This document shows positions 10,563 through 39,060 of a stretch of 64,000 bases of DNA, one piece after another. Numbering within the stretch: the stretch's first letter is position 1; each line of letters opens with the position of its first letter. The stretch is from an uncultured Clostridia bacterium. Lineage in GTDB: Bacteria > Bacillota > Clostridia > Christensenellales > CAG-917. The notes beneath the pieces were generated by a model. That model saw only the letters and a list, made by a program, of their open reading frames with translations. It was not told the origin of the DNA and made no database searches. Location of the stretch: NCBI GenBank assembly GCA_944358385.1, contig CALVQW010000011.1, positions 237 through 64,236 of the forward strand, written 5' to 3'. Both the position numbers and the translations under genes were made by a program.

Positions 10563-10565
10563 GGT

Positions 10566-12964: not shown

Positions 12965-13080
12965 GGGATCAAACAAAATGCAAGGGAAAGGGACAAAAAA
13001 GGACAAAAGACAAGGGGAAGGAGCAAAAAACGGCAGAAAACGGGGAAAAGGGGCGGAAAGCGACAAAAGACGCAAGACAA
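12965..13080. repeat. T-depleted A/G-rich low-complexity tract
   Basis: About 115 bp on the plus strand with almost no T. It is built of reiterated ggacaaaa / cggnaaaa-like units (gggacaaaaaaggacaaaagacaaggggaaggagcaaaaaacggcagaaaacggggaaaaggggcggaaagcgacaaaagacgcaagacaa). Confidence 0.6.
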
Positions 13081-13105
13081 AGCCGCCCCGTCGGGGGCGG
13101 CTTTG
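13060..13105 (-). terminator. Rho-independent terminator of the giant gene
   Basis: Perfect 11-bp stem aaagccgcccc/ggggcggcttt (13079-13104) with a 4-nt loop, about 40 nt after the stop. On the minus strand it is followed by a U-rich gucuugcgucuuuug. Confidence 0.6.
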
Positions 13106-13142
13106 GTGAAGTTTGGTGTGTGCGAGTCGGGACGCGACGCGC

Positions 13143-16100
13143 TCAGTTGGTAGTTTCGCTGACGCCGCCATTGGGATCGACGGAGAAGGAGCGTGTATAG
13201 CCGACCTTGCCTGCGGGCACTTTCCTGCCCTTGTCGACATAGCCGCTCTGGATCTTGTCGCCGACACCCTCGCCGAGAGTCTTGTACTGGTCTTCCGCGG
13301 TGTCATAGCCGGTGATGGTCGCCTGAGAGGTGGTGGGCAGATAGCCGCCGGACGCCCAGTCGAGCACCTTGCCGTTGGCGTTGGTGACCGCGCCGATGTA
13401 CGGGGTGAGGACGTAAGTCGCCGGCCTGCCTGCGATCTTGGGAAGCGGGATGTTGCCGGAGCTGTCCGCATCCGCCGCGGAGAAGGAGACGATGTAGCTT
13501 GCGCCGTCAATGAACACCCTGCCGTACCACACGATGGAGTAGCCGTCGACGGACGCGCGGAGCTTGCCGTCGATGAGACCGATTTTGCCGTCGCCTTTGT
13601 ACTCACCCTTGGGCTCGACTTCGACGGAGATGCGGACGCGCTGACCGCTCTCGACGCGGATCATCGCATCGCCCGCGCTGTCCGTGCCGTTCTTAGCCAG
13701 CTCATAGGTGATGTTGGCACCCGTGGGCATCGTGGGGCTGAGGTAGCTGCTGATGCACCACTTCTCGGTGTCTGCATCCGTCCTCCAAACGTTCTTCCAG
13801 ACGATGTTGCCGTTCTCGTCGATCTCGGGATCCTGCACCGCATAGGTGATGCGCCACGCGTTGGGCAGGCTGAAGGTGGAAGGATCGTAGGGCTGGACGG
13901 TGTACTTGGCAGATGCGGTCTGACCGGTGTAGACATTGGGGAGCGTCGCCTTGTCCACGTCGATGGACCTGCCGAAGTTCTCGGAATCGGTGTTCACTTC
14001 AAACACCTTCTTCTCGCCGCCGCTTACCACCTGCTTGTTGATCTTGTCATACTCCTCGAGCATCGCCACCACCCTGCGGGAGACGAGGTATTCTATCTCG
14101 TAATCCTGCGAGTAGCCGTCGGGACCGGTGAGTCTTGCGACGAGGGTGACCAAACCGCCGAGGTAGTTGACGGTCATGTCGGTGTACACCCAAGTGAGGG
14201 TGAAACCGTTGCGGTCCGCGTCGTTGAGGTCGAACGCGACGGGAGCATCCATGCCCGTGATCTTGGCATAGACCGTCGGGACAGCCGCCTCAAGCTGAGT
14301 GCGGAAGGAGGTGATGTTGAACTCGATGGGATCGATGCAGGTCTGTTTGGGAGCCTCGCCGGAGTACTCGCCCTCTTTCCAGACGCGGCCGGTGGCGGGC
14401 AGGCTGTCGAGAAGCCCGTCCGTGTCGTCCGCGATGGTGGTGCCATCGACGATGGTGCGCTCGATGACGTTGATGAAGCCGTCCCAGGTGTAGTTCTGCG
14501 CGCCGAAGGGCGAGGACTTGCTCTCGGTGCCGTCCTCCGCCGTCGTTGTGACGACGGGAGCGGGGACGTTGAAGCGCACATCGAAGCTGCCGCCGCGATA
14601 GCTGTTGCGCACCGCCGCGAGGTTGATCCACTCGACCTCGACGCCATTGATGACCGCGCCGCTCTCCGTCTTGAGGTCCACCGTCTTGGGGATGTAGACG
14701 TAGTAGTCGAACACATCCACTTCTTTGCCTTCCACGACTTCCTTGCGCATGACCGGCTCGTCGATGTCAAGCCCGTCGAAAGGATCGAAGGTGTAGACAC
14801 CGTTCTTGAAGTTCTCCGCAAAGTAATCGGAGTTGCCCTTATCGCCGCCGAAGTAGCCCGCATAGCTGCCGTCGACCGCGGTGAAGGTGACATCGGTCAC
14901 TGTGCCGTTGACGATGCGGATGGGCATCGTGATAGTGCCGGTGACGCCGGAGTGCGTGGAGACGGTGACGGAAGTGTTCCTGTTGCCGCCGAGGTAGTTG
15001 TAGGTGATGCCGGAGTGGTTCCAGGTGAGGTCGCCCGCCGCGAAGGTGTACTCCGCCGCATAGACATAGGCGTAAGTGCCGTCCGCGTCGAAGTTGCCGT
15101 CCGCGTCATAGCGATAGCCTTTGCCGGAGGCATCCTTCAGCTCGACATAGCGAGGAGCGTCCATGTCCTCTGCCGTGCCGATGTAACTATCGAGTGCGGT
15201 CACGGGGACGAACCTGCCGTCGATGAACACTCTGACATTGCTTGTGAGTTTCGTGCCGTTGGTCTCGTGAGGCGTGGGCAGGAGATCGTCGCCCATATAC
15301 ATGTCTTTATAAGGCGCGAAGTCCTGATACGTGCCGACCGCCGTACCGTCGAGGTCGCCGTAGGCGATGTCGGAGAGCAAGTTGCCGGCATTGACGCGGA
15401 GGGCGGAGAAGGTGACTTCCAGCGTACCGCTGAACGCCGCCGCCGTACCCGAGGCATTGCGCAACTCATAGCCGCAATCCTTGGAGACCTCGCTCGCCGC
15501 CGACTTGACCTCGGGCAGATCTTTGATGTCGAAAGTGTACTCAATGACTTCGTTGCCCGCCTCGAACGTGACCGCGATCTTCACCGCCTCGTCCGTGCCG
15601 GAGAACACCTCCTCGTCCGCATAGCGGTAGACGTTCATGACGGTGATGCCGGTGGGCAGGTGGGTATCGCGGGAGTAGGACACTTCGATGACCTGACCGT
15701 TAGTCCTGTCCGCATAGCGGCGGACGTCGTCGGAGAACCTTCTGGTCTCCGAGACAAGCTTGAATGTGTCGGGCAGGACGATCTCGGTGTCGACAATGAC
15801 GCGCTCATTGATGACGATGGGGACAACCGCCTGATAGAGGTTGCCGTCCGCGTCCTCGAAGGTGGCGATGTTGTCGGGATACCTCGCGCCCGCGAGCGGG
15901 AGAGCCACGTCGGATGCGAGCTTGTCGCTCCAGCTCACGACGTAGACGGTGATCTCTCTGCCGTCCGCGAGTTCCACTTGGAGCGTGTCGCCCTTGACTT
16001 CTTCGGTCTCCCCGGTCTCCTCATTGACTTTGTCATAAGTCAGCGCGGGACGGTTCGCCGCGATGAACGCGCCGAGAGTGCCGTATTCCATGGGATCGAC

Positions 16101-19100
16101 GGACATTGCGCGGTAGGCGGGAGAGACGATCTCCGTTATGACGCCGTACTCCGTCGCGGTGTCGCCGCCTTCGGGAGTGCCGCCCTCCACCGCATCGTTC
16201 ACTTCCTCGTTGTCGGCGAGGGTGACGAGGACGTCGGTGTCCACGGTTTCGCCGGAGGCGGAGACGGTGAGATGCGCCACGTCGGAGGTGCGGGTGGTGT
16301 CATAGACAAAGCCGTTCCAATCGAACTTCGCCTTCATCGCCGTGCCGTCGGGCTGCACCACGGAGCCACTCTCGGGCATCGCGCCGTAGAGCTGCGCCGC
16401 GGTGGTGATGGTGTAAGTCATCACGCCGTCCTGCTGTGTCGCGGAGCTGCCGTCCGAGAACACATAGGTGTCGGGCGTGGGAGCGGGGGCGGGAGCAGCG
16501 GGTGTCGCCCACTCGAAGCCGCCCTCCTCTCCTATGGATATGGTGACGGTGACGGGCTGCGCCGCAGCGACAAAGCCCATGTTGTCGGGGACGTCTCCGA
16601 GTGCCTCTTTGACCTGATCCGCGGAGGGGTTCATCACCCACGCGTCTTTGACATTGATGAGGAAGTCATCCGCAAAGCCGCGCACGTACTCCCACGCGCC
16701 GCCGACGCCGAGGTCGGTCTCCTGCAGCTCCTTCCAGACATTGAACCCGTCCACATACATGGTGATGTCGACGGTGACATTCCTGCCGGGACGTCTGGCC
16801 ATCGCGTTGAGCAGCTCGGTGAGGTCCCATCCCACCACGGTGCGGGAGCCTATTTCGCCGCCGCGCCCGCCGTCCGCCGTGACGAAGTTGCCGCCCGTGA
16901 TGCCGACGAGGTCACGGAGGAAATACTCCTTGATCGCCGTACGAGCCTGTGCCAAAGTCATGTCGGTGAGACCGAGTGCTTCCGCAAAGACGCTCCAGCT
17001 GCTGTATGCGGTTTTGAATTTGGTATCCGTATAGTCGTAGCCGCTCTCCACGCTGTCGATGAGTGCGGAGGAGATGGACAGGGTGACATCATGCGTCTGT
17101 GTGGCGGAGAAGCCCCACTGATAGCTGATGCCCACGGTGACGGTCTCGCCGCCGTCCGTGCCGTCCCAGCCGTAGTCCAGCCCGTTGAGATCCCACGAGA
17201 AGGTGCCCACGGGCAGGACGCCGCCGCTCAACGCCGTGTCGATGACATAGTAGTCCACGCCGCCGAGAGTGACTTGCTCAAGCTCATCACCGTTCATCGC
17301 CGCGAGCGCGGTGTAGAGAGGATAGATGTTGTAGACGCCGTTGGTCTGCTGATATTGCCCCGCGCCGGTGCGCAGCACTGCGGTGAGCGGGTTGCCTTCC
17401 GCATCCACAGCCTGCTTGCCGAACACATAGCCAGTGCCGTTGCGGAACTCGATGTAGACGAGGTCGTCCGCGATCGCGGTGTCGCCGCCCGCCCAATCGA
17501 GGGAGACCGCAGCACCCTTGCCGCCCTTGTCCACTTCATAGACGCCCTCGAAGTACTGGCCGCCGGTGACGTAGACGGGGATCATCGCCACGACGAGGTT
17601 CAAAGCATAGCCGTAGACATAGCCCGCAAGCCTGTTGTTTTCCTTAAGCGCGGAGGGGCTGAAGTCCAGCGCACCCGCATCCCAGGTGATCGGGACATTG
17701 TGCGCGCCGCCGCTCTGTCCGACGAGTATCACGTTCGCCGTCGTGGGCAGATTCGCTCCGAGCAGCAGATCCGCATTCAAAGTGCCGGAATTCACACTGC
17801 TGCCGTTGTTGTAGACGGTCGCGCTCTTGGTGCCGACGTCGTCCACCTCTATGGAGTAGCCGTCCAAGCCCAGCGAGCCTCCCGACAATCCGGACGCTTC
17901 CAGCAAGCTGAACAAGCCTTCGCCCGAGAACTTGGACACTTTGTTGGCCTCGTCAGGCGTCACCAGGTTGCGCGGGTTGATCGAGAGGACGTACGCTTCT
18001 TTAAGCGTGCCGTGCGAGTTGTTGTTGTTCGGATCTTTGTACAGCGTCTGGTTAGATATCTCGCCGCCGCTGTCGTTGACGCCGTTCAAGGTCTTGCCGC
18101 CGTTGTACTCGTACTTCTCGGCATTGACCATGAGTTCGATAGCCTGGATGCCGGGCGCGACCACCCTGCCGTCATTGAAGCCGTACATCTCAGCCTGCGG
18201 GTTAAGGTCGATGTAGATGTTGAGTGACGGGTTGGGCGAGTCGTCATAGCTGGCGAAGGTGGGCAACAGCGTCGAAATGAGCGCGGTCAAGCTGCCGAAG
18301 GCCTTCCTGACATCGCCCGCCAGACCGCTTACGAACGCACCGAGGTGGTAGAGGTCACGGATAACCCAGCTGAAAAGTGCGACGGGTATGGATCTCACGT
18401 AGGGCGTGAGCAATTGCACTCTGAGTTCCGTCTTCTCATGCTCCGAAATGCCCTCGATGTAGTCGATGCTGTCAAGCTCCGCAAACAGGTTGGATATCAC
18501 CCACTGACCGGGACCTTCGCTGTTGCTCGCGTTGTGACGTCTGATGACCTTGCTGAAATCATAGTTTGACTCCAACAAAGCTCCGCCCATCAACCATTGC
18601 GGTCCGTCGTAGGAGAAGTAGTAGAACTTCGTGTTGCTTTCGTGTGCCGCCACGCCGGTGCTGAGGGTGCCGCCGCCGTCGATGTTCAATGTCGTCTGAC
18701 CGTTGACGTCGATAGCGACATGGAAGAGAGAGAGGATGGTCGTATAGAGGAAGATCATCAACTCATTGTAGCCGTCCTTGGTGAGTTCCACCTTGACAGA
18801 GACGAGAGACGCGTCCGTCTTGGCGGGATCACCGGGATCGACATAGTCCATACCGGAGAGGTAGGGCTGATAGCCATTGCGGTTGAAGAGATTGACCTCC
18901 ACCTTGTTGACAAGCCCGTTCAGGATGGACATGAGGTCGCCGTCCTTGTAAGAGTAACCGGAAGTCCAGCTCGTGCCGTCCTCGGACTTGGCGTACTTGT
19001 ACGGCTTGTTGACATTGGTGGCAGAAGCTTTGGCAGGTGTGGTAAAGCTCGACGCGTAGGTGAGACTGTTGTCGCCGGTATAGTCATTGGTGACGACTTT

Positions 19101-31100: not shown

Positions 31101-34100
31101 GCCCGCAAAGAGCTCCACGCCGAAGTCTTTGAGCAGCGTGAAGAGATCCGCACTGATCCTGGGACCGCCGAGAGGCGCAAGATCGATGTAGATGTAGCCG
31201 TTGATGAGATAGATGGCGATCGCACCGCTGTCCGAACCCTGTTCGGGGTTGAACACGATCTCGATCTCCGCCTGCAATGCGGAGAGGATGTCGAGAGCGG
31301 AAGGTTCGGGGAGAGTGAAGTCCGCAAGAATTCCCGAAAGCCCCAGCTTCTCGAGGTCGAGGAGACCGCTGATGTTGATGTCGAGGCTGTCGCCGATGGG
31401 ATCGTCGAGATAAAGCTCGATGCCGAGGGACGCCAGCAGAGCGTTGACCAGCTTGGAAAGCGTGGCTTGATCGGGATCGTTGCCCAGCCCCGCAAGCCCG
31501 TCCGCTATGGCGGGGACGTCAAGCAACACGTCCACTATCTCGGAGAGGCTGAGCGGACGGCGGACGTAACGCCCGTCATTGGACTGCATGTAAGAGCCGT
31601 CGTCCAGCTTGATGTACCTGTCTTCGAGATCGTAGTTGCCGATCTCATCCTCGCTCACCAATTCATAGGTGGCGTCGGCGGAATATTCCACCGAAAGGTT
31701 GAGACCGAACTTCGCCATACTGCTTGCGGTATAGCTCTGGAAATCATCGCGCGCCGCGATGTCGCTGATCTTGCCGTGCACTTCCTCATTGACGGAGTTG
31801 GTGACGTAAGGTTTGACGATGGAAATGCCCAGCGACGCATACTTGGTGTCCACGCCGATGTTGACGGCGGGAGTCTCGAAGTCGATGTCCACCACCGCTT
31901 CGGCATCCAGACCGAGTGCCGCGAAGATGGCGTTGATGTCGGGCTTCTCCTCCGTCGTGGCGGAGTCCTCACTGCTGTTGTTCGCCACCGCGTCGATGAT
32001 GGCGAGTATGACCGCCTCGGTGACGCTGAGCGCGATGTGACCTTCTCCCGCTTCGAGGACGATGTCAAGCGCGGTGAGAGCGTCTTCGCCCTCTTCCCCT
32101 TCCGCTGCCGCCACGGCTTCGGAATTAGAAATACCCTGCTGCCCCGTCTTGAGCAGCTTGTTCACCGCCTCGGTGATCTTGCTCACCACGCCGGTGTTCT
32201 CGATGTAGAAGTTCTTGTCCGAGAGCATGCCCATGTCGACATACAGCCTGTCGCCGCGGATGTATGCCGCAAGCACGAGCGCGTCCGCACTGTCGGGATC
32301 GGCGTTGCTGTCCAGCACTTCCAGCGCGATCTCGGTGGCGTCCGCATCCGAGAAGTGGATGTTCGCTCCGAGCTTGATGTCCAGACCGAGCGTGAGATCG
32401 TCGTCGATGGACACGCCGAAGTCGAGAGCGATGCCCGCTCCCGCCGCCGCGAGGATGTCGCCGAGAGGCAGTTCGCCGTTGACGAGATCCGCAGTGTCGC
32501 CGAGAGAGAGTTCGAGAGAGAGCGTCGTGGAGAGAGAGACCACGCCATCGCTGTCAAAGATGTTCTTGAACTCGACGGAGTCGAATCCCTCGCCTTTCAC
32601 CGTCTTGGTCTCGTCGTTGATGGCAACGCCGATGTCACCCAGCGAAAGCCCGATCTTGACGGGATCCGCCTCAATGCTGAGGTCGATGCCGATGTCCCTC
32701 TGCGCGCCCTCGCCCGCTCCGTAGTAGAGGGTGAGGAAGCTGCCCGCGGGATCGAGTTTCACGAAGTTTTCGGGATCGATCGCCACGCCGGAACCGGCGA
32801 GGAGCATGTTGAGCAGAGAGGAGAGGAAGTTCGCGCCGAAGCCGACCCGCAGCTCCTCGTCATTCATATAAATGCTGTTGATGATGGCAAGTATGCCGCC
32901 CAGGAGGTCGGTTTCTTCGCCGCTGCCAGAGCCGCTGCCGCCTTCCGTGCCGTCGACCGCGATCGCCGCTTCGGCGGGTGTCTTGGTCTGCTGATCGTCA
33001 CCGGTGGTTTTGCCGTCATCGGAGGCGAACAGCCCCGCGATGTCGATGCCGGGCACGATGATGCCGCCGCCGATGATGCCGCCTTCGTCGGAGTAGATGT
33101 AAAGGTCGCTGCTGCCCGTCGTCTCATCCGCAAGGATGTAGAGGGCAAGGAGCGTCCTCCCGCCTTCGCTTATCTCCAACGCGATGTCGGAGTGCGAGAG
33201 TATGTAGCTGACCAGAGTGGGATCCTCGGTGTCGATCACTTCGGGGAAGCGCAGGAGCGCGCGCAGCGAGAAGTCAAGCTCCGCGGACACGCTCTTGTCG
33301 ATGACGAAGGAGAGCACGAGTTTCTCAATGAGAGACTTGATCTCCTGAGACACGCCGCCTTCCGTGCCGGAAGTGCCGTCGTCAACGGTGAGGAAACCGC
33401 CTATCCAGCTGCCGATGGTCCATTCGGTGTCATCGTCCGCGGCGAGGGCTTCCAGCGAGATCTTGCCGGAAAGCTCCGCATAAACACTGTCGATGTTGAG
33501 TCCGGCGAGGTCGAGCTGGTTGTTTTCGTTGAGCAGCACGCCGATGTCTTTGTAGTCGGCGGGATCGAACGTGGCGGGCAACACCTCCGCATCGTCGAAC
33601 ACTTCCCTGCCCAGCCCGATCTTGAACGGAGAGAGCGTGACCTCAACGGAGCCGAGTTCGCTCGCCTCCACGCGTGCTTTGAAGAGATAGTCCTCGGTCG
33701 CGGTGCCGTCATGCTTCGCCTGGCTGATGAGGTTGCTCCAATTCAGGCTGAGTGCCGCGTCGATCTCTCCGAGCGCGTCCGTGCCGAGAGCCTCCTCGAC
33801 AATGGCGGTGAGAGCCTCCGCAAGTTCGATGGTAAAGCCCTTGGAAGTGACGTGGAGCATGATCTCGAAGATGCCCATGGCGTAGTCCTCTTGGTAGAGG
33901 TCGTCCAAAGTGGGCTTTTCTTCATCCGCCGCGGAGACAGCCTGTCCGCTTGCCGCGGGCATGGCTTCGTTGCATCCGTCGCATATGCCGTCATCGTTGA
34001 GATCCGCATGCTCGTGCGTGATCATGCCGATGAGCATCTCCATGATGTCGAGCTTGGTGCTCACGCGTGCGCCTATGAGCGCGTCCGCGTCAACATAAAT

Positions 34101-37100
34101 CGTACCGTCCGCATAATAGGCGGCAAGCAAGGTCTCCAGCTCGCCGTCCTGCATATTCGCCCTGTTGACGAGAGCGATCGCAAGTTCTGTCTCGTTGGTG
34201 TAACCGTCGGGCAGCGTCCCGCCCGTGAGCGCGGCAAGCAGCGACGCGATGTCCAGCTTGCCCTCCACGGTAAGGGCGAGATCGATGTCCATGCCCGTCG
34301 GGAAGTTGATGTAGGCGTCCTCGGTGAGTTTGATGTTGTTTGCATCGATGTCCGCAGCGAGTCCGAGTTCCAGCGAGACATAGACGTAAGGATCGGCAAA
34401 GATGTCCACAAACTCACCATCGATGGCGGGTATGCTGCTCTGCCCGTTGATGGCGGCATTGATCCCGCCGAGGGTGAAGTCCAGCCCGAAGTTCTCGCCG
34501 ATGCCGAGCGTGACACCCACGGAAAGCCCTTCGGAAGTGTCCTCGCCCGCGAGTTGCAGACCGTCATTGAACTTGATGATGACCGCGGCGTCCAGATCGA
34601 GAGGATTGCCCACCGCGTCCTCGATGACAACGCCTTTGACGTTCAGAAGATCGAGGAGGATGTCAAGCAGCCCCGCACCCAGCGCGACATCGAGATAGAG
34701 GTCGCCGAGAGTGACGTCCGCCGCCGCGATGATGGGGACGAGTTCCTCGGGTATGGTGGGGATGTTAGTGCTGCCGCTGCCCGAGCCGCCGCCCGTCTGA
34801 CCTTCGTCCGCGACGGAGACCGCCTCGGACGCGGAGGATGCGGCGAGGAAGGGCGTGATGTCCGCCTTGACGGAAAGCCCGCCGAGCAGTTTCTCGGAAG
34901 TGTTGAGATAGATCACTCCGTCCACGAGCCACACGCGCAGAGGAGTCGCACCGCCGTCCTTTTCGGCAAGTTCGACATAAAGGTTGATGGAAGGCAGCAG
35001 ACTGCCTATCGCAGAGGCGATGTTGCCGCCGGAGAGCGCACCTATTAGTGCCTGCACGTCGGTGACCTCGGCTTTCAGCTTGAGTGTCGCATCAACGCCG
35101 AAGGACTCCGCAAAGTCGGCAAGCACCGCCACCAGGAATTGGTTGGAGTTGGCGTAGCCGATGTTTGCGAATGTGCCCGCCACCGCGCTGAGGTCGAGGT
35201 CCGCCTGCAGACCTATCTCCAAGGTCTGCACATTGGCAAGCACCTCGTTGAGGTCGAGATTGCTGAATGTGAGCGATCCCGTCTTAGGATCGATGAACGC
35301 GTCAAAGGAGGAGAGCCTTATGTACTCGTTGCCGGTAAGGTCCGCCGCAAACTCGGCGAACGCGGCGTCGAAGTGATCTCTGTCCGCCACACTGCCCACT
35401 TGGAGCGCGATGGTCACACCCGCGGAAGCGAACTGCGTGGGGATCTGTTCCAGCCCCACCGCCGCCGCGAGGTCGAGATCGAGGGAAATGATCTTGGGCA
35501 GACCGAACCCGACATCCTCGTACGTGATGTCCACGCCGCCGTCGATGGGGATCTTCACGCCCGCATTTTCGCCCGTGAAAGCGATGCTCCAGATGTAGTC
35601 GAGGATCTCCTGCGTGAGAGCGATCTGCACCTTCTCAAGGTTGAAGATGTTGCCGTCCATCTCGACGACGATGTTGTTGAAGATCGCCTTGACAAGCCCC
35701 ATGGTGTCCGTGATGGGTTCCCCGGACTGGGTGGCGGCTATCTTGCGCACCAGCTCGCCGCTTGCAAGCTGACTGTCGATCTCGGCGACAAGCTCCTCAT
35801 ACTGCGCCGTTTCCGCCGGAGTGAGCAGCCCCGCAATGGCGTCCTGCGCCTTTGCGACAAGGTCCTCGACGAGTCCGCCGAGGAGTTTATTGAGATTGAC
35901 GCCGTCCACATAGAATTTGCCCGTGCCGAGCAATCCGCTGAGGTCGGCAAAGAGCATCTCGTTCTCGCCGCTGTATCCGATGCGCGCGCGCACATCCTCT
36001 GCCCTTGCGCCCGTGAGTTCGACAAGCAACTTGGTGTTGGCGTTGTTGAACATGTCGATCTCCGCACTGATGTGCAGCTGCAACGTCCTCTCCAGCCCGT
36101 CGAGATTGATCTCGTGGTCGAGAACGGCGGCAAGGCTTTCCCTGACTTTCGGATCCAGACCGAAGAGAGTGCCGAAGGAGTCGATGAGTTCGTTGGGAGT
36201 GATGCTCAGCTGTTTGAGTGCCAGGTCGAGGGAGATCGTGAGATCGAGAGTGAGAGGAGAATACTCCGTAAGCTCGGCGACATTGATCCCTCTGTCGGTG
36301 ATGAGATAGCTCTCCACGTCCGCCACGGCGAGATCGGTGTCATTGTTCCACTGTATGCCCTCGCCGCCGAAGGAGATGTCGATGCGGCTCTGCTGGCTGC
36401 CGTAGATCTCCTCAAGCTCCGTACCGAAGGTGTCGAAGTCCACGCCGATGCCGAGGTCGACCGCGGCAAGTTCCCTGCCCTCGCCGTTGTCGGCGGTGAG
36501 ATCGGCAGTGAGATAGATGGAAAGATCCTGTATGCTGGAAAGAAGTGCGAGATCGATGCCCAGGATGTCCTCGACAAGGTCATAGACATCTTCGGGGATC
36601 AGGCTGTCGGGACCGGGAGTGAGCAAGCCGCCCAGCACCGTGCCGAGCAGTCCGGAAAGCGGGACGGGCATGGTGAGTTGCTGGGTGCCGTCGGGATTGG
36701 TGACAAGGCGGGAAGGTCCGAAGAGGGCGGGGAGCGCGCTCATAACGCCTGCGACGATGCCCTCGTCCATGGTGAGAAGATCATTGAGAATGAATTGTGC
36801 AAGACTCTTGTATTCGTCGCTGCCGGGGGCGGAGAGAAGTTCGCGCAAAGTCCTGACCACGGCAGTGGCATTGATGTTGTCCGTCTTGACTATGGTCGCA
36901 CCCGATCTCAGACCGGTGCAGTCGTAAACGAGGGTGGAATCGTAATAATAGACGCCCAGGAGCACCTCGGAAAGATTGCCTTCCGCATCCTTCTTCCACA
37001 GCTCGAAGAGGATCTGATTGCCCGTGTCGCTCTCAAGGTCGATGGCGGTCTGCACCTTGAACGCGTAGGAGTAGCCCACCGCGTCTTTTGCATAGTCCAG

Positions 37101-37352
37101 CCCGACCAAGACGTCGGAATAGACATAATGCCCGGTGTCCGAATTGGACTTCCGAGCGGCGTCTATCAGGACGTCCCAAGCCTCCGTAGCACTGAGTGTG
37201 GTGGAATTGTCGGGGACTCCGGTGTCACCGGGTTCCGGCGTCGGAATGACGGGAGCACCGCCGCCCTCTCCGGTCGGGTTGCACGCCGTCAGGATCCCTA
37301 CCGTGAGGCAGAGAATAAGCACGAACAGTAATGCGAACTTCACCTTTCTCAT
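13143..37352 (-). CDS. Giant (8,069 aa) modular predicted surface lipoprotein, no family assigned
   Basis: Single stop-free frame of 24,210 nt. GGAGGG SD 6-7 nt before the ATG (cataggagggaagttatATG). Signal peptide MRKVKFALLFVLILCLTVGILTAC with an LTAC lipobox. Normal acidic/hydrophobic amino-acid composition with recurring sequence motifs, unlike the overlapping frames. It has its own promoter region and terminator. Confidence 0.85.
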   Translation of the reverse strand: MRKVKFALLFVLILCLTVGILTACNPTGEGGGAPVIPTPEPGDTGVPDNSTTLSATEAWDVLIDAARKSNSDTGHYVYSDVLVGLDYAKDAVGYSYAFKVQTAIDLESDTGNQILFELWKKDAEGNLSEVLLGVYYYDSTLVYDCTGLRSGATIVKTDNINATAVVRTLRELLSAPGSDEYKSLAQFILNDLLTMDEGIVAGVMSALPALFGPSRLVTNPDGTQQLTMPVPLSGLLGTVLGGLLTPGPDSLIPEDVYDLVEDILGIDLALLSSIQDLSIYLTADLTADNGEGRELAAVDLGIGVDFDTFGTELEEIYGSQQSRIDISFGGEGIQWNNDTDLAVADVESYLITDRGINVAELTEYSPLTLDLTISLDLALKQLSITPNELIDSFGTLFGLDPKVRESLAAVLDHEINLDGLERTLQLHISAEIDMFNNANTKLLVELTGARAEDVRARIGYSGENEMLFADLSGLLGTGKFYVDGVNLNKLLGGLVEDLVAKAQDAIAGLLTPAETAQYEELVAEIDSQLASGELVRKIAATQSGEPITDTMGLVKAIFNNIVVEMDGNIFNLEKVQIALTQEILDYIWSIAFTGENAGVKIPIDGGVDITYEDVGFGLPKIISLDLDLAAAVGLEQIPTQFASAGVTIALQVGSVADRDHFDAAFAEFAADLTGNEYIRLSSFDAFIDPKTGSLTFSNLDLNEVLANVQTLEIGLQADLDLSAVAGTFANIGYANSNQFLVAVLADFAESFGVDATLKLKAEVTDVQALIGALSGGNIASAIGSLLPSINLYVELAEKDGGATPLRVWLVDGVIYLNTSEKLLGGLSVKADITPFLAASSASEAVSVADEGQTGGGSGSGSTNIPTIPEELVPIIAAADVTLGDLYLDVALGAGLLDILLDLLNVKGVVIEDAVGNPLDLDAAVIIKFNDGLQLAGEDTSEGLSVGVTLGIGENFGLDFTLGGINAAINGQSSIPAIDGEFVDIFADPYVYVSLELGLAADIDANNIKLTEDAYINFPTGMDIDLALTVEGKLDIASLLAALTGGTLPDGYTNETELAIALVNRANMQDGELETLLAAYYADGTIYVDADALIGARVSTKLDIMEMLIGMITHEHADLNDDGICDGCNEAMPAASGQAVSAADEEKPTLDDLYQEDYAMGIFEIMLHVTSKGFTIELAEALTAIVEEALGTDALGEIDAALSLNWSNLISQAKHDGTATEDYLFKARVEASELGSVEVTLSPFKIGLGREVFDDAEVLPATFDPADYKDIGVLLNENNQLDLAGLNIDSVYAELSGKISLEALAADDDTEWTIGSWIGGFLTVDDGTSGTEGGVSQEIKSLIEKLVLSFVIDKSVSAELDFSLRALLRFPEVIDTEDPTLVSYILSHSDIALEISEGGRTLLALYILADETTGSSDLYIYSDEGGIIGGGIIVPGIDIAGLFASDDGKTTGDDQQTKTPAEAAIAVDGTEGGSGSGSGEETDLLGGILAIINSIYMNDEELRVGFGANFLSSLLNMLLAGSGVAIDPENFVKLDPAGSFLTLYYGAGEGAQRDIGIDLSIEADPVKIGLSLGDIGVAINDETKTVKGEGFDSVEFKNIFDSDGVVSLSTTLSLELSLGDTADLVNGELPLGDILAAAGAGIALDFGVSIDDDLTLGLDIKLGANIHFSDADATEIALEVLDSNADPDSADALVLAAYIRGDRLYVDMGMLSDKNFYIENTGVVSKITEAVNKLLKTGQQGISNSEAVAAAEGEEGEDALTALDIVLEAGEGHIALSVTEAVILAIIDAVANNSSEDSATTEEKPDINAIFAALGLDAEAVVDIDFETPAVNIGVDTKYASLGISIVKPYVTNSVNEEVHGKISDIAARDDFQSYTASSMAKFGLNLSVEYSADATYELVSEDEIGNYDLEDRYIKLDDGSYMQSNDGRYVRRPLSLSEIVDVLLDVPAIADGLAGLGNDPDQATLSKLVNALLASLGIELYLDDPIGDSLDINISGLLDLEKLGLSGILADFTLPEPSALDILSALQAEIEIVFNPEQGSDSGAIAIYLINGYIYIDLAPLGGPRISADLFTLLKDFGVELFAGFTRDAASGTGEAVIAAEGDGSSGEESSFDVEGLLNTLVRAVVLRNNVGSAIAGGNIFSDGIGVDVLLPANLLGNIVAFATGKDGYVFEDFILDENDSKISLNVGGASGIELVVSARSNAGFDLSVSANAGLVIDVATPQSVLLSAGERGTFVDMTAAVYNVAGLIKPELGLPDADLGSQRVTLSVAGKVNFETDGEGSYDLGSLLQQYIEDIILELKTDAAFNDGVGFRLTLSADLGKLALDVLADSSIKTTDEKIAKFIEGSDLNTIEVALELLDIDITGNITDEVLAGIYISGGNLYLDGTGIFDVVENYSYVPNFLRFVLDAVKLGQSTHQHVDEDGNGVCDGCNEPMPEEGGETTPDEGSGQAFSAAESVTAADGDTTAIRNAMLQLIYSDSAMQIMLTKSIISMVLATLLPDLGSFADIFDKFEVSLGVDIGRYDYVDISEENEVVFAATESADGEYVAVEAAEGGIIGFTPANGSDAQRYDLVSATTASKGQLYYKAKDGNFYKADPLRYNLYETAAYAPAEEDFAGSYVKVKGSEEYLARDRYTFYTLDGDRRVLVTDLAKVPANTAVYAYRGNTNAEVELGGDGFVVTYDRKYGYVREADGGYLRVYRPYTELSEFYLSLGAHIGTMNVGLSLGGITLDFGDTGSLLPDYVREGKTKAPAKHTGTEGANAYTYENGVYTKVETPAADGEYYYDVPLLPFYDSVITVGGAVEIELAITEGNINFGQMLEGLLGDLGDLVVQIPDTSKGYSSAHLRLDFTLVLDMFDLPASEVQIELYNLSSESGAEVRWLAAHYLNEMLYLDLSFFGLPKLSVPMTEISDMLQGLVDDLLTDSIYQDVEVGSSSAEAVTAADEQSPELDSDLSFEEQVASLLVSKRKLTVAIGNALMRYLLSVIVIGDYTLDDFVYEDLQGGLEITLDLNNGLDIGIGAELMLEGDRYELYTENTTADGARYYIFKEFAGTSAPAEGLFIYDSDTGMYREANQAETRDGLEEGSAIILYQRFEAARNAENNGWVYYTYAAGDEDKWFFDEEKDAYLDSTATGVVKPASATLYTRTETAAEVEDNVFLFIPAVDANANDYDTVLTLDLNVGDIDLYFTETRDFTLDRDELEEFYDFNSLDTVSLSETISLDLLFAGDSPIDLTALLEYLFPDSEYDFDAVIDVVTGDDNNNSAVSDILRGIDITVSLEFKLGAFINYLRSLAARYDLSYAEETEDGEEIRVALEALGDDIDLITFINVIRSLIGAKKVPDASGSIYYEDANVDDLLGLEDFLNFANASVEISATSNDGTPVHTLLGVYFTLGDNEGTPVEDYDGNVTLDRYSHYFAADNGLYGYVGVKKDTDGTADGYMLISKFAEKGIMYNEKEHGRYARDDSFLYPDEKGTVVREHAGLYVDLSYFGQPGVYMNLTELLAFISGLMDQPLSLSEGEAVTAADPAGDGSTTEGGGFSLPIDLGALLGTDINLELPLLTEQIAAYVRAFLFGIRITSTYIRILVQTDYLNQLLTILLGESPFAEDMVFDQSYVGINVDVNNYLYAQISSASTDEIEFSDTRFAIEESEDGTYYLYYDQTTEESYYQLRSDMTPAEEKAYIDGGGKFYDITPIDVYLNVGGEKVLASEASNTDWVRAETYEDGGDIANEALIGTYKFYVDLDSPDAIYAKENAGLDKDGFAELGTGDSIYVVYPSANKKPLIEASIWLWGHNLGLGIEMPVTDAARYTYEEVGERNGAYVMEENFTYTHDTANAHDGSHYLYYRGHYYKITQNDLKVLDGGVYSSVTGKTWDAFQTNPYSGDFYLHVRAVGEGFSAYILINEADVYKKEKYGETYRYVGEGKGNYTRNATTSLVTVPEYRVYADNIIDDFDIAAGENEDATFVYDEEAEGFVSVATAREAYTAVAGEGDSFEAYLAENYRSKDGTAVFYEGEKIVYGDTGELYYINVVIRGSISLSQHVAYFTKDEYPGGEAALPAQAYALVRGEYVPYDATKHAGLDKYYAYTASSTELGKVLGAIVGELDADFIVDEGYSAVLPFEIRATVKIDYRSSAEDAYDTLYVAGLELAIDLWRTEADNGTLTHVLGLYYLSDVWNIGDNTDVGVGEDQTGKDVVNSAALYVDLSWFFGPSAKVRVDLSQYTVEELLNDKVLSGLQKGDETAPDGSGEAVTAAASNEVVDPDGATVLLNIFSRKIALQASAGFLKLLVGMLAPNTAATLNEVLPNLSIGVDISAAPYDLTIGATLFNDDNVGLLDLGLTLNLFGTSDKTTGMQISFGSLEDYADLSKANFEAKVKEYMFYQSMFSRVDEDDIKAAPEGTVFYKTTEDKEYAVIEGGKVAALAHAKDHAVYVYDDAPTYTLFVSDYARATAPDGERYHLVSNTESTVYVPLLDKAAYDAVAGKLNLYRLNYTAPAGDRFSDLGTLSYSGIGTELNASSAGNYIDYLGDGSGKGTALLYVRLNNLRSNGPAREALLATESGKTVFDKLNIDTDGNIEAVDNVVVAASFYVKESGGLYRKTDVFGNYQNILSLDLGTLLNSKGNENLAKDPTHKHEYDAVTHVCACGAVDALALVLEGVQAGGLSSIELGAELSLDLSFRDAINWTRQMTELMRVDGGTQDYFAMMLSSMALNSANFVSAIGMDIKLAVRLKTEGVFEALPSLLAGGNVAAADILPMLRGAMIYLEIALDTNFFGEAIADAAPIQLWVEVSDDDELYLNIYLIAPDLGTVTGLTGEYGDFFAQGVKLENAISLIDLIPVEAAAEDATDEAVIAAESSGGGIVIDTTGKDVGMVPDNIWGVLDLLLGEVILTHDMLSVGITEDLLGGLIGALVPEFPAEDIKYLPTFKVTGGADSSGIKLLVGDADLTVKVELGIVGGFDDFASVSEIEKALSNASSSDTLNNLLYKESVYKINADNLPEFLGEARVIAHEDADGNVTYTLLEKVERTVTVPPTEEGGEETTVSKTVYTDGTNDYELDDPRVSVIISTSEYALAPNASPAEVWLGTRYEFTGIEDGKPVFTDLSYEESYKNGAFKSDPKGEYILVPEDSDLGSFESVDEDGNKVMVEYAGTYMLAERYTALGGEVTDDIRYALDASKIRGEYVRLGDVNIALELGGLYLSVNQPFSAGIVDSEGQRIYGYRDMLNIAGAKEVPGIRLHTEIEVGFWGNEGSGLNLGELIDMLLGIDALKQLLGGVELVGTDLTLDITGDFGSQTEAYFTVALDAYFDFTGNLQAKLTVYRGDVALLGVILAYDAIYIDLGGVLGETVKARISDLGLTAMLQDALSGVFDSVGQGSGEASIAAIDTAAGMTLHDYAYIAAMINPGYFSLQLTLAAVQAIIEKVNADNPDLALDLELPDLGDIMLESYGGGKGGSMLALNFKMSEDFGVSIDITKVNIGTERIYTTDDLYFNKDTGDYIVREDGEEVAYKQLLNVDTGDLADDLTLSATGNINLSMTSEGLKPGDDDYDNSLAGWVIGLLTDMLGANSFFVSPFTTADEEYIKYEGPLYTKGEDSTGATVYNQVGTTIAGDTAQFLDTDGETKRNYSDYPELYRTTMIEATFASGDINLGIELEANINLGAIIAAGLGGILFSDLRVAVTLGEPFNTTILEVYYLGSSRLVKQGNIYDLKAEAELTAQQQGAFSDAIYIDASGLGLGKIKFQGIAGLLGGNVGNAYQGVYQSGAATAAEPEDTDAPAEETTTISIALGIDLAENYIGINIDKSLIDFVLNNLLGETLATAGISSLPDIQSLELAFAFGTSSVDSISLDATVDGAGTGLHLTIDDLALGLENTLDTEDLVNKVKKQFAGITYSKTAGVMTLLQSLLEGINPNLSINIDRRAETVILDTTGKSYTGVGRDLQAKKVKTNSTVSLVSSYGFVGRTGNGLGALGGTTSINDYMITLGLTANHPESASDETMKATVYFGNNNAVLADVEVGSLGWADGLGDAMGLLNWIDLGHVIGSGQLFPSFAYGDDRDTGSWSYGTPVATTASDGAAHTSADGTQLYGVGLNMQNGKVVTNDYTGDNSLTYASSFTTPAKASATNVNKPYKYAKSEDGTSWTSGYSYKDGDLMSILNGLVNKVEVNLFNRNGYQPYLSGMDYVDPGDPAKTDASLVSVKVELTKDGYNELMIFLYTTILSLFHVAIDVNGQTTLNIDGGGTLSTGVAAHESNTKFYYFSYDGPQWLMGGALLESNYDFSKVIRRHNASNSEGPGQWVISNLFAELDSIDYIEGISEHEKTELRVQLLTPYVRSIPVALFSWVIRDLYHLGAFVSGLAGDVRKAFGSLTALISTLLPTFASYDDSPNPSLNIYIDLNPQAEMYGFNDGRVVAPGIQAIELMVNAEKYEYNGGKTLNGVNDSGGEISNQTLYKDPNNNNSHGTLKEAYVLSINPRNLVTPDEANKVSKFSGEGLFSLLEASGLSGGSLGLDGYSIEVDDVGTKSATVYNNGSSVNSGTLNADLLLGANLPTTANVILVGQSGGAHNVPITWDAGALDFSPSALKENNRLAGYVYGYALNLVVAMIPVYVTGGQYFEGVYEVDKGGKGAAVSLDWAGGDTAIADDLVYIEFRNGTGYVFGKQAVDAEGNPLTAVLRTGAGQYQQTNGVYNIYPLYTALAAMNGDELEQVTLGGVDYYVIDTALSGGVLPVGTFSWDLNGLDYGWDGTDGGETVTVGISYQWGFSATQTHDVTLSISSALIDSVESGYDYTDTKFKTAYSSWSVFAEALGLTDMTLAQARTAIKEYFLRDLVGITGGNFVTADGGRGGEIGSRTVVGWDLTELLNAMARRPGRNVTVDITMYVDGFNVWKELQETDLGVGGAWEYVRGFADDFLINVKDAWVMNPSADQVKEALGDVPDNMGFVAAAQPVTVTISIGEEGGFEWATPAAPAPAPTPDTYVFSDGSSATQQDGVMTYTITTAAQLYGAMPESGSVVQPDGTAMKAKFDWNGFVYDTTRTSDVAHLTVSASGETVDTDVLVTLADNEEVNDAVEGGTPEGGDTATEYGVITEIVSPAYRAMSVDPMEYGTLGAFIAANRPALTYDKVNEETGETEEVKGDTLQVELADGREITVYVVSWSDKLASDVALPLAGARYPDNIATFEDADGNLYQAVVPIVINERVIVDTEIVLPDTFKLVSETRRFSDDVRRYADRTNGQVIEVSYSRDTHLPTGITVMNVYRYADEEVFSGTDEAVKIAVTFEAGNEVIEYTFDIKDLPEVKSAASEVSKDCGYELRNASGTAAAFSGTLEVTFSALRVNAGNLLSDIAYGDLDGTAVGTYQDFAPYKDMYMGDDLLPTPHETNGTKLTSNVRVFIDGRFVPVTALDSYIGTAEDMDAPRYVELKDASGKGYRYDADGNFDADGTYAYVYAAEYTFAAGDLTWNHSGITYNYLGGNRNTSVTVSTHSGVTGTITMPIRIVNGTVTDVTFTAVDGSYAGYFGGDKGNSDYFAENFKNGVYTFDPFDGLDIDEPVMRKEVVEGKEVDVFDYYVYIPKTVDLKTESGAVINGVEVEWINLAAVRNSYRGGSFDVRFNVPAPVVTTTAEDGTESKSSPFGAQNYTWDGFINVIERTIVDGTTIADDTDGLLDSLPATGRVWKEGEYSGEAPKQTCIDPIEFNITSFRTQLEAAVPTVYAKITGMDAPVAFDLNDADRNGFTLTWVYTDMTVNYLGGLVTLVARLTGPDGYSQDYEIEYLVSRRVVAMLEEYDKINKQVVSGGEKKVFEVNTDSENFGRSIDVDKATLPNVYTGQTASAKYTVQPYDPSTFSLPNAWRITYAVQDPEIDENGNIVWKNVWRTDADTEKWCISSYLSPTMPTGANITYELAKNGTDSAGDAMIRVESGQRVRISVEVEPKGEYKGDGKIGLIDGKLRASVDGYSIVWYGRVFIDGASYIVSFSAADADSSGNIPLPKIAGRPATYVLTPYIGAVTNANGKVLDWASGGYLPTTSQATITGYDTAEDQYKTLGEGVGDKIQSGYVDKGRKVPAGKVGYTRSFSVDPNGGVSETTN
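13146..17700 (-). other. C-terminal ~1,500 aa of the giant protein: array of beta-sandwich/Ig-like-looking units
   Basis: At least 7 units with a recurring pattern [VL]-x-W-x(5-15)-Y-x-G-G ... V-x-V. Examples: VPITWDAGALDF, GTFSWDLNGLDYGWDG, KAKFDWNGFVYD, YVVSWSDKLASD, DLTWNHSGITYNYLGGNRNTSVTV, VEVEWINLAAVRNSYRGGSFDV, FTLTWVYTDMTVNYLGGLVTLV. The fold assignment is inference only. Confidence 0.4.
20076..34826 (-). repeat. Twelve recurrences of an E-A-V-[T/I/S]-A-A-[D/E]-type linker heptad spacing the modules of the giant protein
   Basis: Heptads read at: 34806-34826 EAVSVAD; 33924-33944 QAVSAAD; 32952-32972 EAAIAVD; 32100-32120 EAVAAAE; 31050-31070 EAVIAAE; 29967-29987 ESVTAAD (plus QAFSAAE at 29984-30004); 28524-28544 EAVTAAD; 26781-26801 EAVTAAD; 24603-24623 EAVTAAA; 22809-22829 EAVIAAE; 21225-21248 EASIAAID; 20076-20096 GAATAAE. 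Confidence 0.8.
37281..37352 (-). other. Lipoprotein signal peptide of the giant protein (lipobox L-T-A-C, Cys24)
   Basis: Positively charged n-region (RKVK), a hydrophobic core, then LTAC followed by NPTGEGGG. This matches the signal peptidase II consensus. Confidence 0.75.
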
Positions 37353-37414
37353 AACTTCCCTCCTATGCCTTTACGCACGCCTGAATGCGCCTGCATAGAT
37401 AATAATACAGGCAA

Positions 37415-37466
37415 ATTATACGCACGCCCGAAGGGCGTTATATGAGGTGTTAAATATAATTAACAA
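37415..37466 (-). promoter_or_regulatory. Candidate promoter region of the giant gene
   Basis: Two overlapping candidates on the minus strand. One is TTGTTA (37461-37466), an 18-nt spacer, then TATAAC (37437-37442). The other is a perfect TATAAT (37415-37420) with a poor -35. The hairpin acgcccttcgggcgt lies between them. Confidence 0.4.
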
Positions 37467-37852: not shown

Positions 37853-37880
37853 CAAAAAAAGCCCCCGCAAAGGGAGCTTG
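37853..37880 (-). terminator. Rho-independent terminator downstream of the GH20-DUF4380-PIG-L operon
   Basis: The minus strand reads agcuccc-uuugc-gggggcu (7-bp stem with one G-U pair) followed by UUUUUUU. It sits about 230 nt after the PIG-L stop. Confidence 0.55.
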
Positions 37881-38110: not shown

Positions 38111-38902
38111 TCAGATGTGCAGATCGCGGCGGAAATCGGCTATCTTCTCCTCCGCGAACTCCGCGATGTCGCCGCCGTCCAGCAGGCACGTCATGTCTAC
38201 GCCGTAGACGAGCGCGGTGGCGGCGTCCCCCTCGTGACTTTGGTAGAAAGTGGCGTTGGCGGCACGTCGGGCAAGGGATGCGATGTCGTAGCGTTTGACG
38301 GCGTTCTGGGAGACGAAACAGGACATCAGCGAGGCAGCCAGCGCGTCCGAACCGCTGACATCCATAGCCACTTTGTCCGCATCCGTGAGCCAGTCGAGGT
38401 CCCGCCACAGCTCGCAGCCCAGCACTCTTGCGGGACGCAGGGCGGGAGGAAGCAAACGCGCCGCCTGCAAGGCAAGCACGCATGCCGCAACGTGGGTGGG
38501 ATGACTGTCGAAGGGGTTGTGGATGTAGAGAGTCTCCAAAGGGGGAAGCTCCCGCATTATCGCGGCAAGCTCCTCGACGAGCGCACCGCCTTCCTTCGCC
38601 GCGCGTTTGACCTCGGCGGAAGTTTTCTCGAACAGCCACAGAGCCTCATATGCCCCCGCTTCCGCGGCACGTTTTTGCTCGGCGGAACGTAAAAGTGCCA
38701 TGTCCTCGTCGCTGACTGCGGCATACGCTCCCGAACGCGGGCATTGTCCGCCGTCCGTGAGGACTGCGGCGGCAAACCCGCCCTCCGCATACGCCTTGAA
38801 AATGCCGTCCAGCGCGAACATCTCGATGTCGTCCTTGTGCGCGGACACGGCAAGAAACCTCACGGGCGCGCCTTTCGCGCTCCTCGGCACATACTTTTCC
38901 AT
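38111..38902 (-). CDS. PIG-L/LmbE-family N-acetylglucosaminyl deacetylase
   Basis: Start trimmed to MEKYVPRS (ATG 38900-38902), with AGGAGGAAGT directly upstream. AHKDDIE matches the [AP]HxDD zinc-site motif. A later HPTH segment is also present. Confidence 0.75.
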   Translation of the reverse strand: MEKYVPRSAKGAPVRFLAVSAHKDDIEMFALDGIFKAYAEGGFAAAVLTDGGQCPRSGAYAAVSDEDMALLRSAEQKRAAEAGAYEALWLFEKTSAEVKRAAKEGGALVEELAAIMRELPPLETLYIHNPFDSHPTHVAACVLALQAARLLPPALRPARVLGCELWRDLDWLTDADKVAMDVSGSDALAASLMSCFVSQNAVKRYDIASLARRAANATFYQSHEGDAATALVYGVDMTCLLDGGDIAEFAEEKIADFRRDLHI

Positions 38903-38926
38903 ACTTCCTCCTGCGGCGATGCCGCA

Positions 38927-38993: not shown

Positions 38994-39060
38994 GATATTC
39001 CGTTCGTTTACCCGCTCATTTGCCGCCGTCGGCGCGGAGCGGGATACGAAACGTGTTTTT

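Follow-up and report, generated by a model that had tools for sequence, protein, structure and literature searches.

The stretch of DNA analyzed here, 64,000 nucleotides (nt) of contig CALVQW010000011.1 from an uncultured Clostridia bacterium (assembly GCA_944358385.1, positions 237 to 64,236; hereafter, the window), contains a giant open reading frame (ORF) at 13143-37352 on the minus strand. It runs from ATG to TGA over 8,069 amino acids (aa) with zero internal stops. The encoded 864-kDa protein is acidic (isoelectric point 4.08; 1,264 Asp plus Glu versus 474 Lys plus Arg; net charge approximately -790), is rich in Leu, Asp, Gly and Ala, and contains only 12 Cys residues. Here, we describe the gene, the tandem module from which the protein is built, and the family to which it belongs, and we weigh the possible roles of such a protein at the cell surface. 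An earlier description of the locus, made from the DNA letters without database searches, is referred to as the sequence-only reading. The main features of the gene and its product are as follows.

37859-37879, minus strand: hairpin resembling a terminator, past the end of the upstream PIG-L gene, separating PIG-L from the transcription unit of the giant gene
37415-37420, minus strand: perfect TATAAT, candidate -10 element of a putative promoter, read in the sequence
37358-37363, minus strand: Shine-Dalgarno sequence GGAGGG, 5 nt 5' of the ATG
37281-37352, minus strand: lipoprotein signal peptide (aa 1-23) and lipobox Cys24 (L-T-A-C), assigned by a PROSITE-style rule
37173-37280, minus strand: Pro/Gly/Thr-rich tether (aa 25-60) after the putatively lipidated Cys, read from the sequence
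19746-37079, minus strand: module array (aa ~92-5869), delimited by profile A3, local hmmsearch and self-BLAST
17913-19745, minus strand: highly conserved, nonrepetitive region (aa 5870-6480), delimited by alignment A1
18705-18761, minus strand: conserved hydrophobic 19-mer LMIFLYTTILSLFHVAIDV (aa 6198-6216) in the most conserved region
13146-17912, minus strand: C-terminal part (aa 6481-8069), rich in Val, Thr, Gly and Trp by sequence
17553-17750, minus strand: probable diverged Big_4-type immunoglobulin (Ig)-like segment (aa ~6535-6600; ...ITWDAGALDFSP...RLAGYVYGYALNLVVAMIPVYV), based on ortholog matches
13063-13101, minus strand: intrinsic-terminator-like GC-rich hairpin followed by a T-run (GCCGCCCCCGACGGGGCGGCTTTGTCTT...), 42 nt past the stop codon

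Given the base composition of the window, the chance of a stop-free run over 8,069 codons was computed to be ~1e-120. Furthermore, uninterrupted orthologous frames of 5,088-5,673 aa each were found in seven loci (L005-L011) of metagenome-assembled genomes (MAGs) in GTDB; six of these frames reach the gene end, and that of L011 ends with its contig. Comparison with a 97%-identical strain (L016) over 5,752 codons yielded a rate of synonymous substitution (dS) of 0.050 and a rate of nonsynonymous substitution (dN) of 0.018. The resulting dN/dS of 0.355 indicates purifying selection on the giant gene, at a level that, in our view, is usual among surface proteins. The ORF contains no DNA repeats longer than 45 nt, and those detected were just 60-80% identical. 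Repeat-driven collapse or expansion of the assembly is therefore not a concern.

In some metagenome scaffolds, the homologous locus was called as two genes (1735+6576, 5214+2585 and 5879+2383 aa), with breaks at ~9860-10001 in L003, ~9790-10043 in L004 and ~15208 in L002. The L003 break is an exact 41-nt tandem duplication, as is typical of a scaffold join, and the L004 break is a small deletion whose length is not a multiple of three. Frame-by-frame inspection revealed that the break points vary among the scaffolds and that homology to the window protein is unbroken across the frame switches. Therefore, we rejected the two-gene hypothesis and consider the splits to be assembly artifacts. The starts of several independent fragments fall between aa ~5270 and ~5620, suggesting that assemblies break here because the stretch differs among strains.

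Long stop-free frames are also present antisense to the giant gene, at 13113-18227 (plus strand; 1,704 aa) and at 24705-35048 (plus strand; 3,447 aa). These are by-products of the GC-rich Asp/Glu/Leu/Gly codon usage and not genes, and they could mislead gene callers. Every homolog matches the minus-strand translation. We conclude that the giant gene is real, single and conserved, in line with the sequence-only reading, which had described one uninterrupted stop-free gene with a GGAGGG Shine-Dalgarno sequence and its own terminator. Both signals were located as listed above. The same reading had also proposed a promoter region belonging to the gene itself. This is plausible: the TATAAT and the hairpin after PIG-L are present, but a sigma-70 consensus scan called zero sites on the minus strand, the strand of the giant gene.

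The N terminus of the protein (MRKVKFALLFVLILCLTVGILTAC) contains three Lys/Arg residues within the first 8 positions, followed by a hydrophobic core and the lipobox Cys at position 24. It thus conforms to the lipobox rule applied here (K/R in the n-region; uncharged hydrophobic core; [LVI..][ASTVI..][AGS]-C; Cys at 15-35), and the classical lipoprotein signal with an LTAC lipobox that had been read from the DNA was confirmed. Of the 30 family members that begin with Met and exceed 3,000 aa in length, 26 conform as well, very distant ones included, while the remaining four appear to be N-terminally truncated. Lipidation of Cys24 and cleavage by signal peptidase II are predicted from this lipobox. 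In its charged n-region, hydrophobic core, L-T-A-C and Cys24, the protein resembles bacterial lipoproteins of the Lgt/Lsp pathway. However, typical lipoproteins are tens of kilodaltons in size, whereas the mature giant protein would have ~860 kDa. The only transmembrane (TM)-like segment beyond the signal peptide is the hydrophobic 19-mer.

The first ~5,750 aa had previously been described as acidic modules. They are indeed acidic, and the array ends at aa 5869, near that boundary, but the modules are not a loose collection: they comprise at least 12-13 copies of one alpha/beta unit of ~280 aa (12 strong copies plus weaker ones, about 13 in all). Self-comparison of the giant protein detected weak repeats with ~24% identity. 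The copies were located with profile A3, which consists of 22 junction-centered segments of the repeat unit. The elements of the array, all encoded on the minus strand, are the following.

aa 92-193, minus strand: C-part-like segment at the array start
aa 342-625 and 3200-3315, minus strand: weaker units, detected by hmmsearch with profile A3
aa 671-974, 969-1257, 1260-1584, 1578-1855, 1924-2228 and 2229-2578, minus strand: first six strong units (profile A3)
aa 2766-3066, 3347-3655, 4062-4380, 4688-4974, 5202-5480 and 5583-5869, minus strand: last six strong units (profile A3)
31788-32621, minus strand: unit aa 1578-1855, modeled with AlphaFold2 (AF2)
25170-26387, minus strand: aa 3656-4061 (10% Tyr), the largest of the Tyr-rich inserts that part the units
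aa 2579-2765, 3067-3346, 4381-4687, 4975-5201 and 5481-5582, minus strand: other Tyr-rich inserts between units
32100-32123, minus strand: example of the linker motif [SG]-E-A-x-x-A-A-[DE] in the sequence (SEAVAAAE, aa 1744)
aa 842, 1136, 1460, 2094, 2449, 2936, 3517, 4243, 4841, 5368 and 5753, minus strand: starts of the other linker-motif copies in the sequence
33972-34016, minus strand: optional H-x-H...C-x-x-C knuckle within a linker (HEHADLNDDGICDGC, aa 1113-1127)
30060-30104 and 23436-23477, minus strand: further knuckles within linkers (aa 2417-2431 and 4626-4639)

In the N-terminal third of the protein, the units abut end to end; further on, inserts of 100-430 aa that are rich in Tyr (up to 11%) set them apart. 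These inserts had no Pfam or PDB match and showed marginal similarity to one another (E ~0.01). An acidic, disordered linker bearing the conserved motif EAxxAA[DE] is part of every unit. In the window protein, the motif recurs as [SG]-E-A-V-[TSI]-A-A-[DE] and is preceded by a strand of the form ...LLAAYYxDGxLYVDL.... Over 350 units of the whole family, the best-conserved positions were the first Ala of the linker motif (86%) and the two Tyr and the Asp of the LYxD strand (80%, 86% and 72%). The motif is also found in orthologs and distant relatives. Three linkers of the window protein, and more linkers of its orthologs, additionally contain the H-x-H...C-x-x-C knuckle. The knuckles account for half of the 12 Cys residues, matched no Pfam family and may be metal sites. 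An internal duplication within the unit was considered and rejected, since hhalign revealed no homology between its C-part and N-part (probability, 0.4%).

The AF2 model of the unit aa 1578-1855, built from a 75-sequence alignment of diverse units, had an alpha/beta fold with a mean predicted local distance difference test (pLDDT) score of 75.8 and a predicted template modeling score of 0.66. The first half (C-part) was modeled as five strands and a helix, with a pLDDT of >90 over residues 80-160, and the second half (N-part) as five strands and two helices, with a pLDDT of 60-87. Between them, the linker with SEAVAAAE was disordered (pLDDT, <50). For a three-unit stretch (aa 831-1760), AF2 with an 8-sequence alignment gave a pLDDT of 37, and this model was unusable. 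Foldseek searches with the single-unit model returned zero matches at E<=1e-3 in PDB (350,542 chains) or BFVD, the best template modeling (TM)-scores being ~0.3. With PDB and BFVD as the only structures compared, the modeled unit is not established as a new fold.

To place the protein in a known family, ten overlapping slices were searched against Pfam (slices of 1,000 aa; E<=1), NCBIfam, PHROGs and PADLOC. Pfam gave nothing, and the other three gave nothing beyond two noise-level NCBIfam matches. A PDB sequence search with both protein halves and with profile A3 yielded nothing significant, and Rfam matched nothing across the giant-gene locus. A literature search on giant lipoproteins retrieved plasma-lipoprotein papers only. 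Thus, within Pfam, NCBIfam, PHROGs, PADLOC and PDB, and by Foldseek in PDB and BFVD, the building block is undescribed, as the sequence-only reading had suspected.

That reading had also found, by eye, no sign of known wall anchors or stalk domains, and here, too, the searches agreed with it. Since Pfam was blank on all slices, SLH, choline-binding, RTX, cadherin and Cna domains are lacking. Specifically, Pfam and NCBIfam showed no SLH, CW_binding_1/2, LysM or SH3b domain in any slice, and Pfam showed none of the stalk domains Cna_B, SdrD_B, SpaA and Big, no HemolysinCabind, Cadherin or Big match of the kind expected from RTX or type I secretion system (T1SS) adhesins (LapA, SiiE, MpIBP type), and no AsmA, TamB or DUF490-type domain. 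The window protein differs from the RTX/T1SS giant adhesins also in having a Sec/lipoprotein signal instead. A C-terminal LPXTG sorting signal was not found at the C terminus (...SFSVDPNGGVSETTN), and Gram_pos_anchor was not matched. The sole LP.TG sequence (LPATG, aa 7651) is located 418 aa before the end and is not conserved, as comparison with the relative P0009 revealed. A phage or defense assignment found no match in PHROGs or PADLOC, and the neighbors of the gene are housekeeping genes (MetRS, phosphoglycerate mutase, Pst).

Between the array and the C-terminal part lies a conserved region of ~600 aa (aa 5870-6480) that had escaped the sequence-only reading. Its conserved motifs include the invariant NLFNxNGYQPY and PNPSxNxYIDLxP, as well as GIQAIELMVNAE. 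The hydrophobic 19-mer in this region may be a helix in the protein interior or may contact a membrane. The profile of the C-terminal alignment A1 matched nothing in PDB.

The last ~1,500 aa had been proposed to form stacked beta-sandwiches. Two observations lend weak support to this proposal. First, a [V/L]xW...Y..GG motif recurs seven times in the C-terminal part (near aa 6570, 6718, 7033, 7139, 7442, 7573 and 7719). Second, one segment (aa ~6535-6600) is Big_4 like: it shows the V-x-W...G-x-V-x-G...V-x-V pattern of Big_4 (PF07532), and it matched this family in 2 of 10 orthologs (best E, 3.1e-4; window copy excluded) and in 2 of 12 full C-terminal parts (E, 2.7e-3). However, the segment of the window protein itself remained unmatched (gathering cutoff, 22.1 bits), even at E<=10, and it covers <1% of the protein; its profile A5 found nothing significant in PDB. 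The stacking, in turn, has almost no internal repeat signal on its side: in the C-terminal 1,590 aa, the sole signal is weak and pairs aa 6677-6768 with aa 7399-7488 (hhalign probability, 57-68%).

An exhaustive hmmsearch of 1.84 billion representatives with the unit profile retrieved 123 clusters at E<=1e-3, including 45 at E<=1e-30. Family members of 6,500-7,900 aa with 11-15 units are numerous; approximately 20 in all have 5,600-7,924 aa and 11-15 units, and the remainder resemble fragments. A word-indexed search of 5.8 billion proteins with three 1,500-aa pieces yielded 7, 16 and 6 clusters, all of them metagenomic and none with a name or a Pfam domain. When each GTDB species was represented by a single genome (185,579 species), a scan found seven loci, all in MAGs of uncultured Clostridia/Clostridiales. 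Likewise, all members traceable to a named source are from Clostridia or Eubacteriales MAGs, where they are named "hypothetical protein." The window protein has the features by which we define the family, a lipobox and at least 10 tandem units with the ...Y...LY[IVL]D strand and the EAxxAA[DE] linker. Pfam found nothing in five distant members.

The C-terminal region of the window type is common to a closer clade, out to P0037. In the distant giants P0047 and P0055, the array is followed by two CarboxypepD_reg domains (86.6 and 55.9 bits; cutoff, 32.3), by Big_4 matches of 35.2 and 24.1 bits (cutoff, 22.1), and by weak SdrD_B and SpaA matches. In summary, the family is narrow, consistently giant and consistently lipobox bearing, and the building block, the family and the linker motif are new.

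A search for homologs and synteny in related genomes showed that the orthologs keep their position: in the window clade, P0037 and P0042, the giant gene occupies the same chromosomal site. One flank of this site harbors phosphoglycerate mutase and an HGSNAT-like gene, and the other harbors an AEC transporter, DUF1858, Gate proteins and methionyl-tRNA synthetase (MetRS). Directly upstream of the giant gene (38111-41616, minus strand), genes for GH20, a DUF4380-like protein and a PIG-L deacetylase are located, two of which are specified here.

38111-38959, minus strand: PIG-L deacetylase ORF, directly upstream of the giant gene; the true start is probably an internal Met
39061-39936, minus strand: DUF4380-like protein of 291 aa, upstream neighbor

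These neighbors recur. In the P0047 locus, orthologs of the DUF4380-like protein (38% identity) and of PIG-L (43% identity) again precede the giant gene, although the neighborhood is otherwise unlike that of the window and contains a transglutaminase-core protein and ROK. GH20/DUF4380-like/PIG-L neighbors are also listed at L013 4615-7703, and a DUF-like protein and ROK are encoded upstream of the giant gene in P0055. The GH20, DUF4380-like and PIG-L enzymes have no signal peptides and are cytoplasmic by sequence. Therefore, any tie to the giant protein would be via a pathway, for example, uptake and catabolism of N-acetylglucosamine (GlcNAc)-containing glycans, and not by direct contact. The adjacency is explained just as well by inheritance of the gene order.

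Our preferred interpretation, to which we assign roughly even chances, is that the giant protein is a lipid-anchored, very long, polyanionic surface fiber built from an undescribed module. The host, one of the uncultured gut Clostridia (Eubacteriales), is presumably single membraned. In such a cell, the protein would be exported by Sec, lipid modified at Cys24 and cut by signal peptidase II, so that its N terminus would be tethered at the outer face of the cytoplasmic membrane. The Pro/Gly-rich tether would be followed by the ~13 alpha/beta units of ~280 aa, each broken by a strongly acidic, disordered linker with EAxxAA[DE] and many of them parted by Tyr-rich inserts. This array could form a long, flexible, highly negative stalk that reaches through and past the cell wall. 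At its far end, the C-terminal ~2,200 aa, comprising the 600-aa conserved region and the beta-rich part with Ig-like (Big_4-type) segments, would serve as the ligand-binding end. A surface role of this distal part is suggested by CarboxypepD_reg and Big_4 in P0047 and P0055, together with the Big_4-like segment in the window clade. One guess for the ligand is GlcNAc-containing glycans, since cytoplasmic GlcNAc-processing genes repeatedly adjoin the giant gene.

Several points weigh against the fiber. Its lipidation, surface exposure, shape and binding are all steps that we infer, and that the host has a single-membrane envelope is an assumption based on its taxonomy. No binding domain was recognized by Pfam in the slices of the window protein itself, its C-terminal part is nearly devoid of internal repeat signal, and the Ig-like assignment comes from two weak matches. 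The neighboring sugar enzymes are cytoplasmic, and their adjacency could reflect inherited gene order. The phase of the repeat may be junction centered or that of a bead between linkers, so that rigidity and length of a fiber cannot be stated. Finally, to our knowledge, few of the characterized Gram-positive surface proteins combine a very large, wall-spanning size with a lipid anchor at the N terminus.

Giant repeat-built bacterial surface proteins are well known as a class. In Gram-positive bacteria, they include Staphylococcus aureus Ebh, which is built from FIVAR-GA repeats, and LPXTG adhesins with Ig-like stalks (SdrD, SpaA and Rib type). Like these, the window protein would be secreted, very large and acidic, with tandem modules forming a stalk (dozens of them in the known proteins) and a different region at the far end. 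Moreover, beta-sandwiches are present in distant family members (CarboxypepD_reg, Big_4 and, weakly, SdrD_B/SpaA type). In contrast to Ebh and the LPXTG adhesins, the window protein would be anchored through the lipobox Cys at its N terminus, in place of an LPXTG or TM segment at the C terminus, and its ~280-aa alpha/beta unit with an internal linker has no FIVAR, GA, Cna_B or Big match in Pfam and no structural match.

It is also conceivable, although rather unlikely in our view, that the protein is an envelope scaffold and not an adhesin. It would then form a polyanionic matrix in the wall zone, serving in cation binding, spacing, or osmotic and mechanical stability, and would have no external ligand; its role would be like that of the 1.1-MDa Ebh. 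Such a matrix would accord with the net charge of approximately -790 and the pI of 4.08. That distant relatives keep the gene at one chromosomal site, amid housekeeping genes, suggests a core envelope component and not an accessory adhesin, and the purifying selection (dN/dS, 0.36) extends along the whole length of the gene. The lack of a recognized binding domain, already mentioned as a difficulty for the fiber, also accords with a scaffold. However, the distal Ig-like and prealbumin-like domains of the distant relatives typify exposed surface proteins, and the subfamilies differ in their C-terminal regions, as would be expected of a ligand-facing end. Furthermore, a link to peptidoglycan is absent, given that Pfam detected no SLH, LysM, CW_binding or SH3b domain.

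A more far-reaching proposal, which we consider improbable as a whole, combines three suppositions. The ~280-aa unit would be a new fold. The EAxxAA[DE] motif would act as a switch, either as a docking clasp that zips the units into a rigid, envelope-spanning rod or as a processing site that releases the ~13 modules. The family would constitute a core part of the envelope, so far unrecognized, in an order-level clade of uncultured gut Clostridia; it would be encoded at a fixed site and coupled to GlcNAc metabolism.

The linker motif also bears on the possibility that the product is a polyprotein or precursor. EAxxAA[DE] would then be the site of a protease or a modifying enzyme, and the product would be cut or modified into ~13 separate modules, for release or for deposition in the envelope. 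In favor of this, the motif Ala (86% over the 350 units) is as conserved as the Tyr residues of the fold core, although the segment has a pLDDT of <50, and the motif is kept in orthologs and distant relatives. However, no protease gene is consistently adjacent at the loci examined, and Ile, Ala, Ser and Thr all occur at the variable positions, which makes a hydroxyl-directed modification unlikely. The small conserved residues would equally fit a short strand or helix that docks on the adjacent unit, a contact that the single-unit model could not show. We give the precursor only a slim chance.

That the protein carries lipids or other hydrophobic molecules, or forms a bridge for them, with its units forming grooves of AsmA/TamB- or TULIP-like function, appears very improbable. 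Long amphipathic strands and a high content of Leu, Ile and Val in the units are compatible with it, and the weak top Foldseek matches include the lipid-binding folds CD1c, ApoB100 beta/alpha1 and 4eg9. These matches are insignificant, however, with none at E<=1e-3 and TM-scores of <=0.3, and AsmA, TamB and DUF490-type matches are absent from the Pfam results. In addition, the disordered acidic linkers interrupt the units, which is incompatible with a continuous groove, and the host lineage is expected to have no outer membrane to bridge to. Lastly, an assembly chimera, fused neighboring genes or a decaying pseudogene is practically out of the question: although several metagenome scaffolds call the locus as two genes, the splits vary by scaffold, homology crosses each frame switch (one of them at the 41-nt scaffold-join duplication), seven MAG loci and ~20 representative proteins (5,600-7,900 aa) are uninterrupted, the dN/dS is 0.36, and the ORF has no long DNA repeats.

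Should the surface fiber be real, the use of a lipid at the N terminus to hold a giant that spans the wall would be an unusual mode of anchoring among characterized Gram-positive surface proteins. It would be a candidate surface structure of a poorly known, uncultured lineage and, as such, relevant to gut-microbiome research. The family also exposes a blind spot of annotation, since one protein that is "hypothetical" to every annotation resource would take up ~3% of the coding capacity of a typical small Clostridia genome. To structural biologists and Pfam curators, the unit definition, the family-retrieving profile and the moderately confident model (mean pLDDT, 76) offer a new domain.

Regarding size, the sequence-only reading had placed the protein among the largest bacterial polypeptides. 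This was overstated, since bacterial proteins of up to 85,804 aa have been predicted, and gut Clostridia encode proteins of 10,000-30,000 aa (10.1101/2023.11.21.568195). In UniProtKB, >41,000 proteins exceed 5,000 aa, of which 38,248 carry one or more Pfam domains (PMC11573180). The window protein shares with the gut Clostridia giants the organism class, the habitat, a length of thousands of residues and a proposed role in adhesion (10.1101/2023.11.21.568195). It is smaller, however, and contains none of their domains (RCC1, Listeria-Bacteroides repeat, YG repeat, dockerin and leucine-rich repeat [LRR]).

Further genes of the window were also recorded. Downstream of the giant gene, at 9498-11699 (minus strand), an SPFH/Band_7_1 domain fused to double zinc ribbons is encoded, followed by a 354-aa multi-zinc-ribbon protein; L003, L004 and L014 also have this SPFH/zinc-ribbon pair 3' of the giant gene. 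At 48446-49807 (minus strand), there is a gene for a lone 453-aa Condensation-domain protein with weak PapA_C similarity and no adjoining nonribosomal peptide synthetase modules; it is adjoined by a BD-FAE/alpha-beta hydrolase at 49832-50809. Finally, a 733-aa protein with a BspA-type LRR domain (LRR_5; 173.9 bits) and collagen triple-helix repeats is encoded at 55843-58044 (plus strand) and is likely to be a second surface protein of the window.

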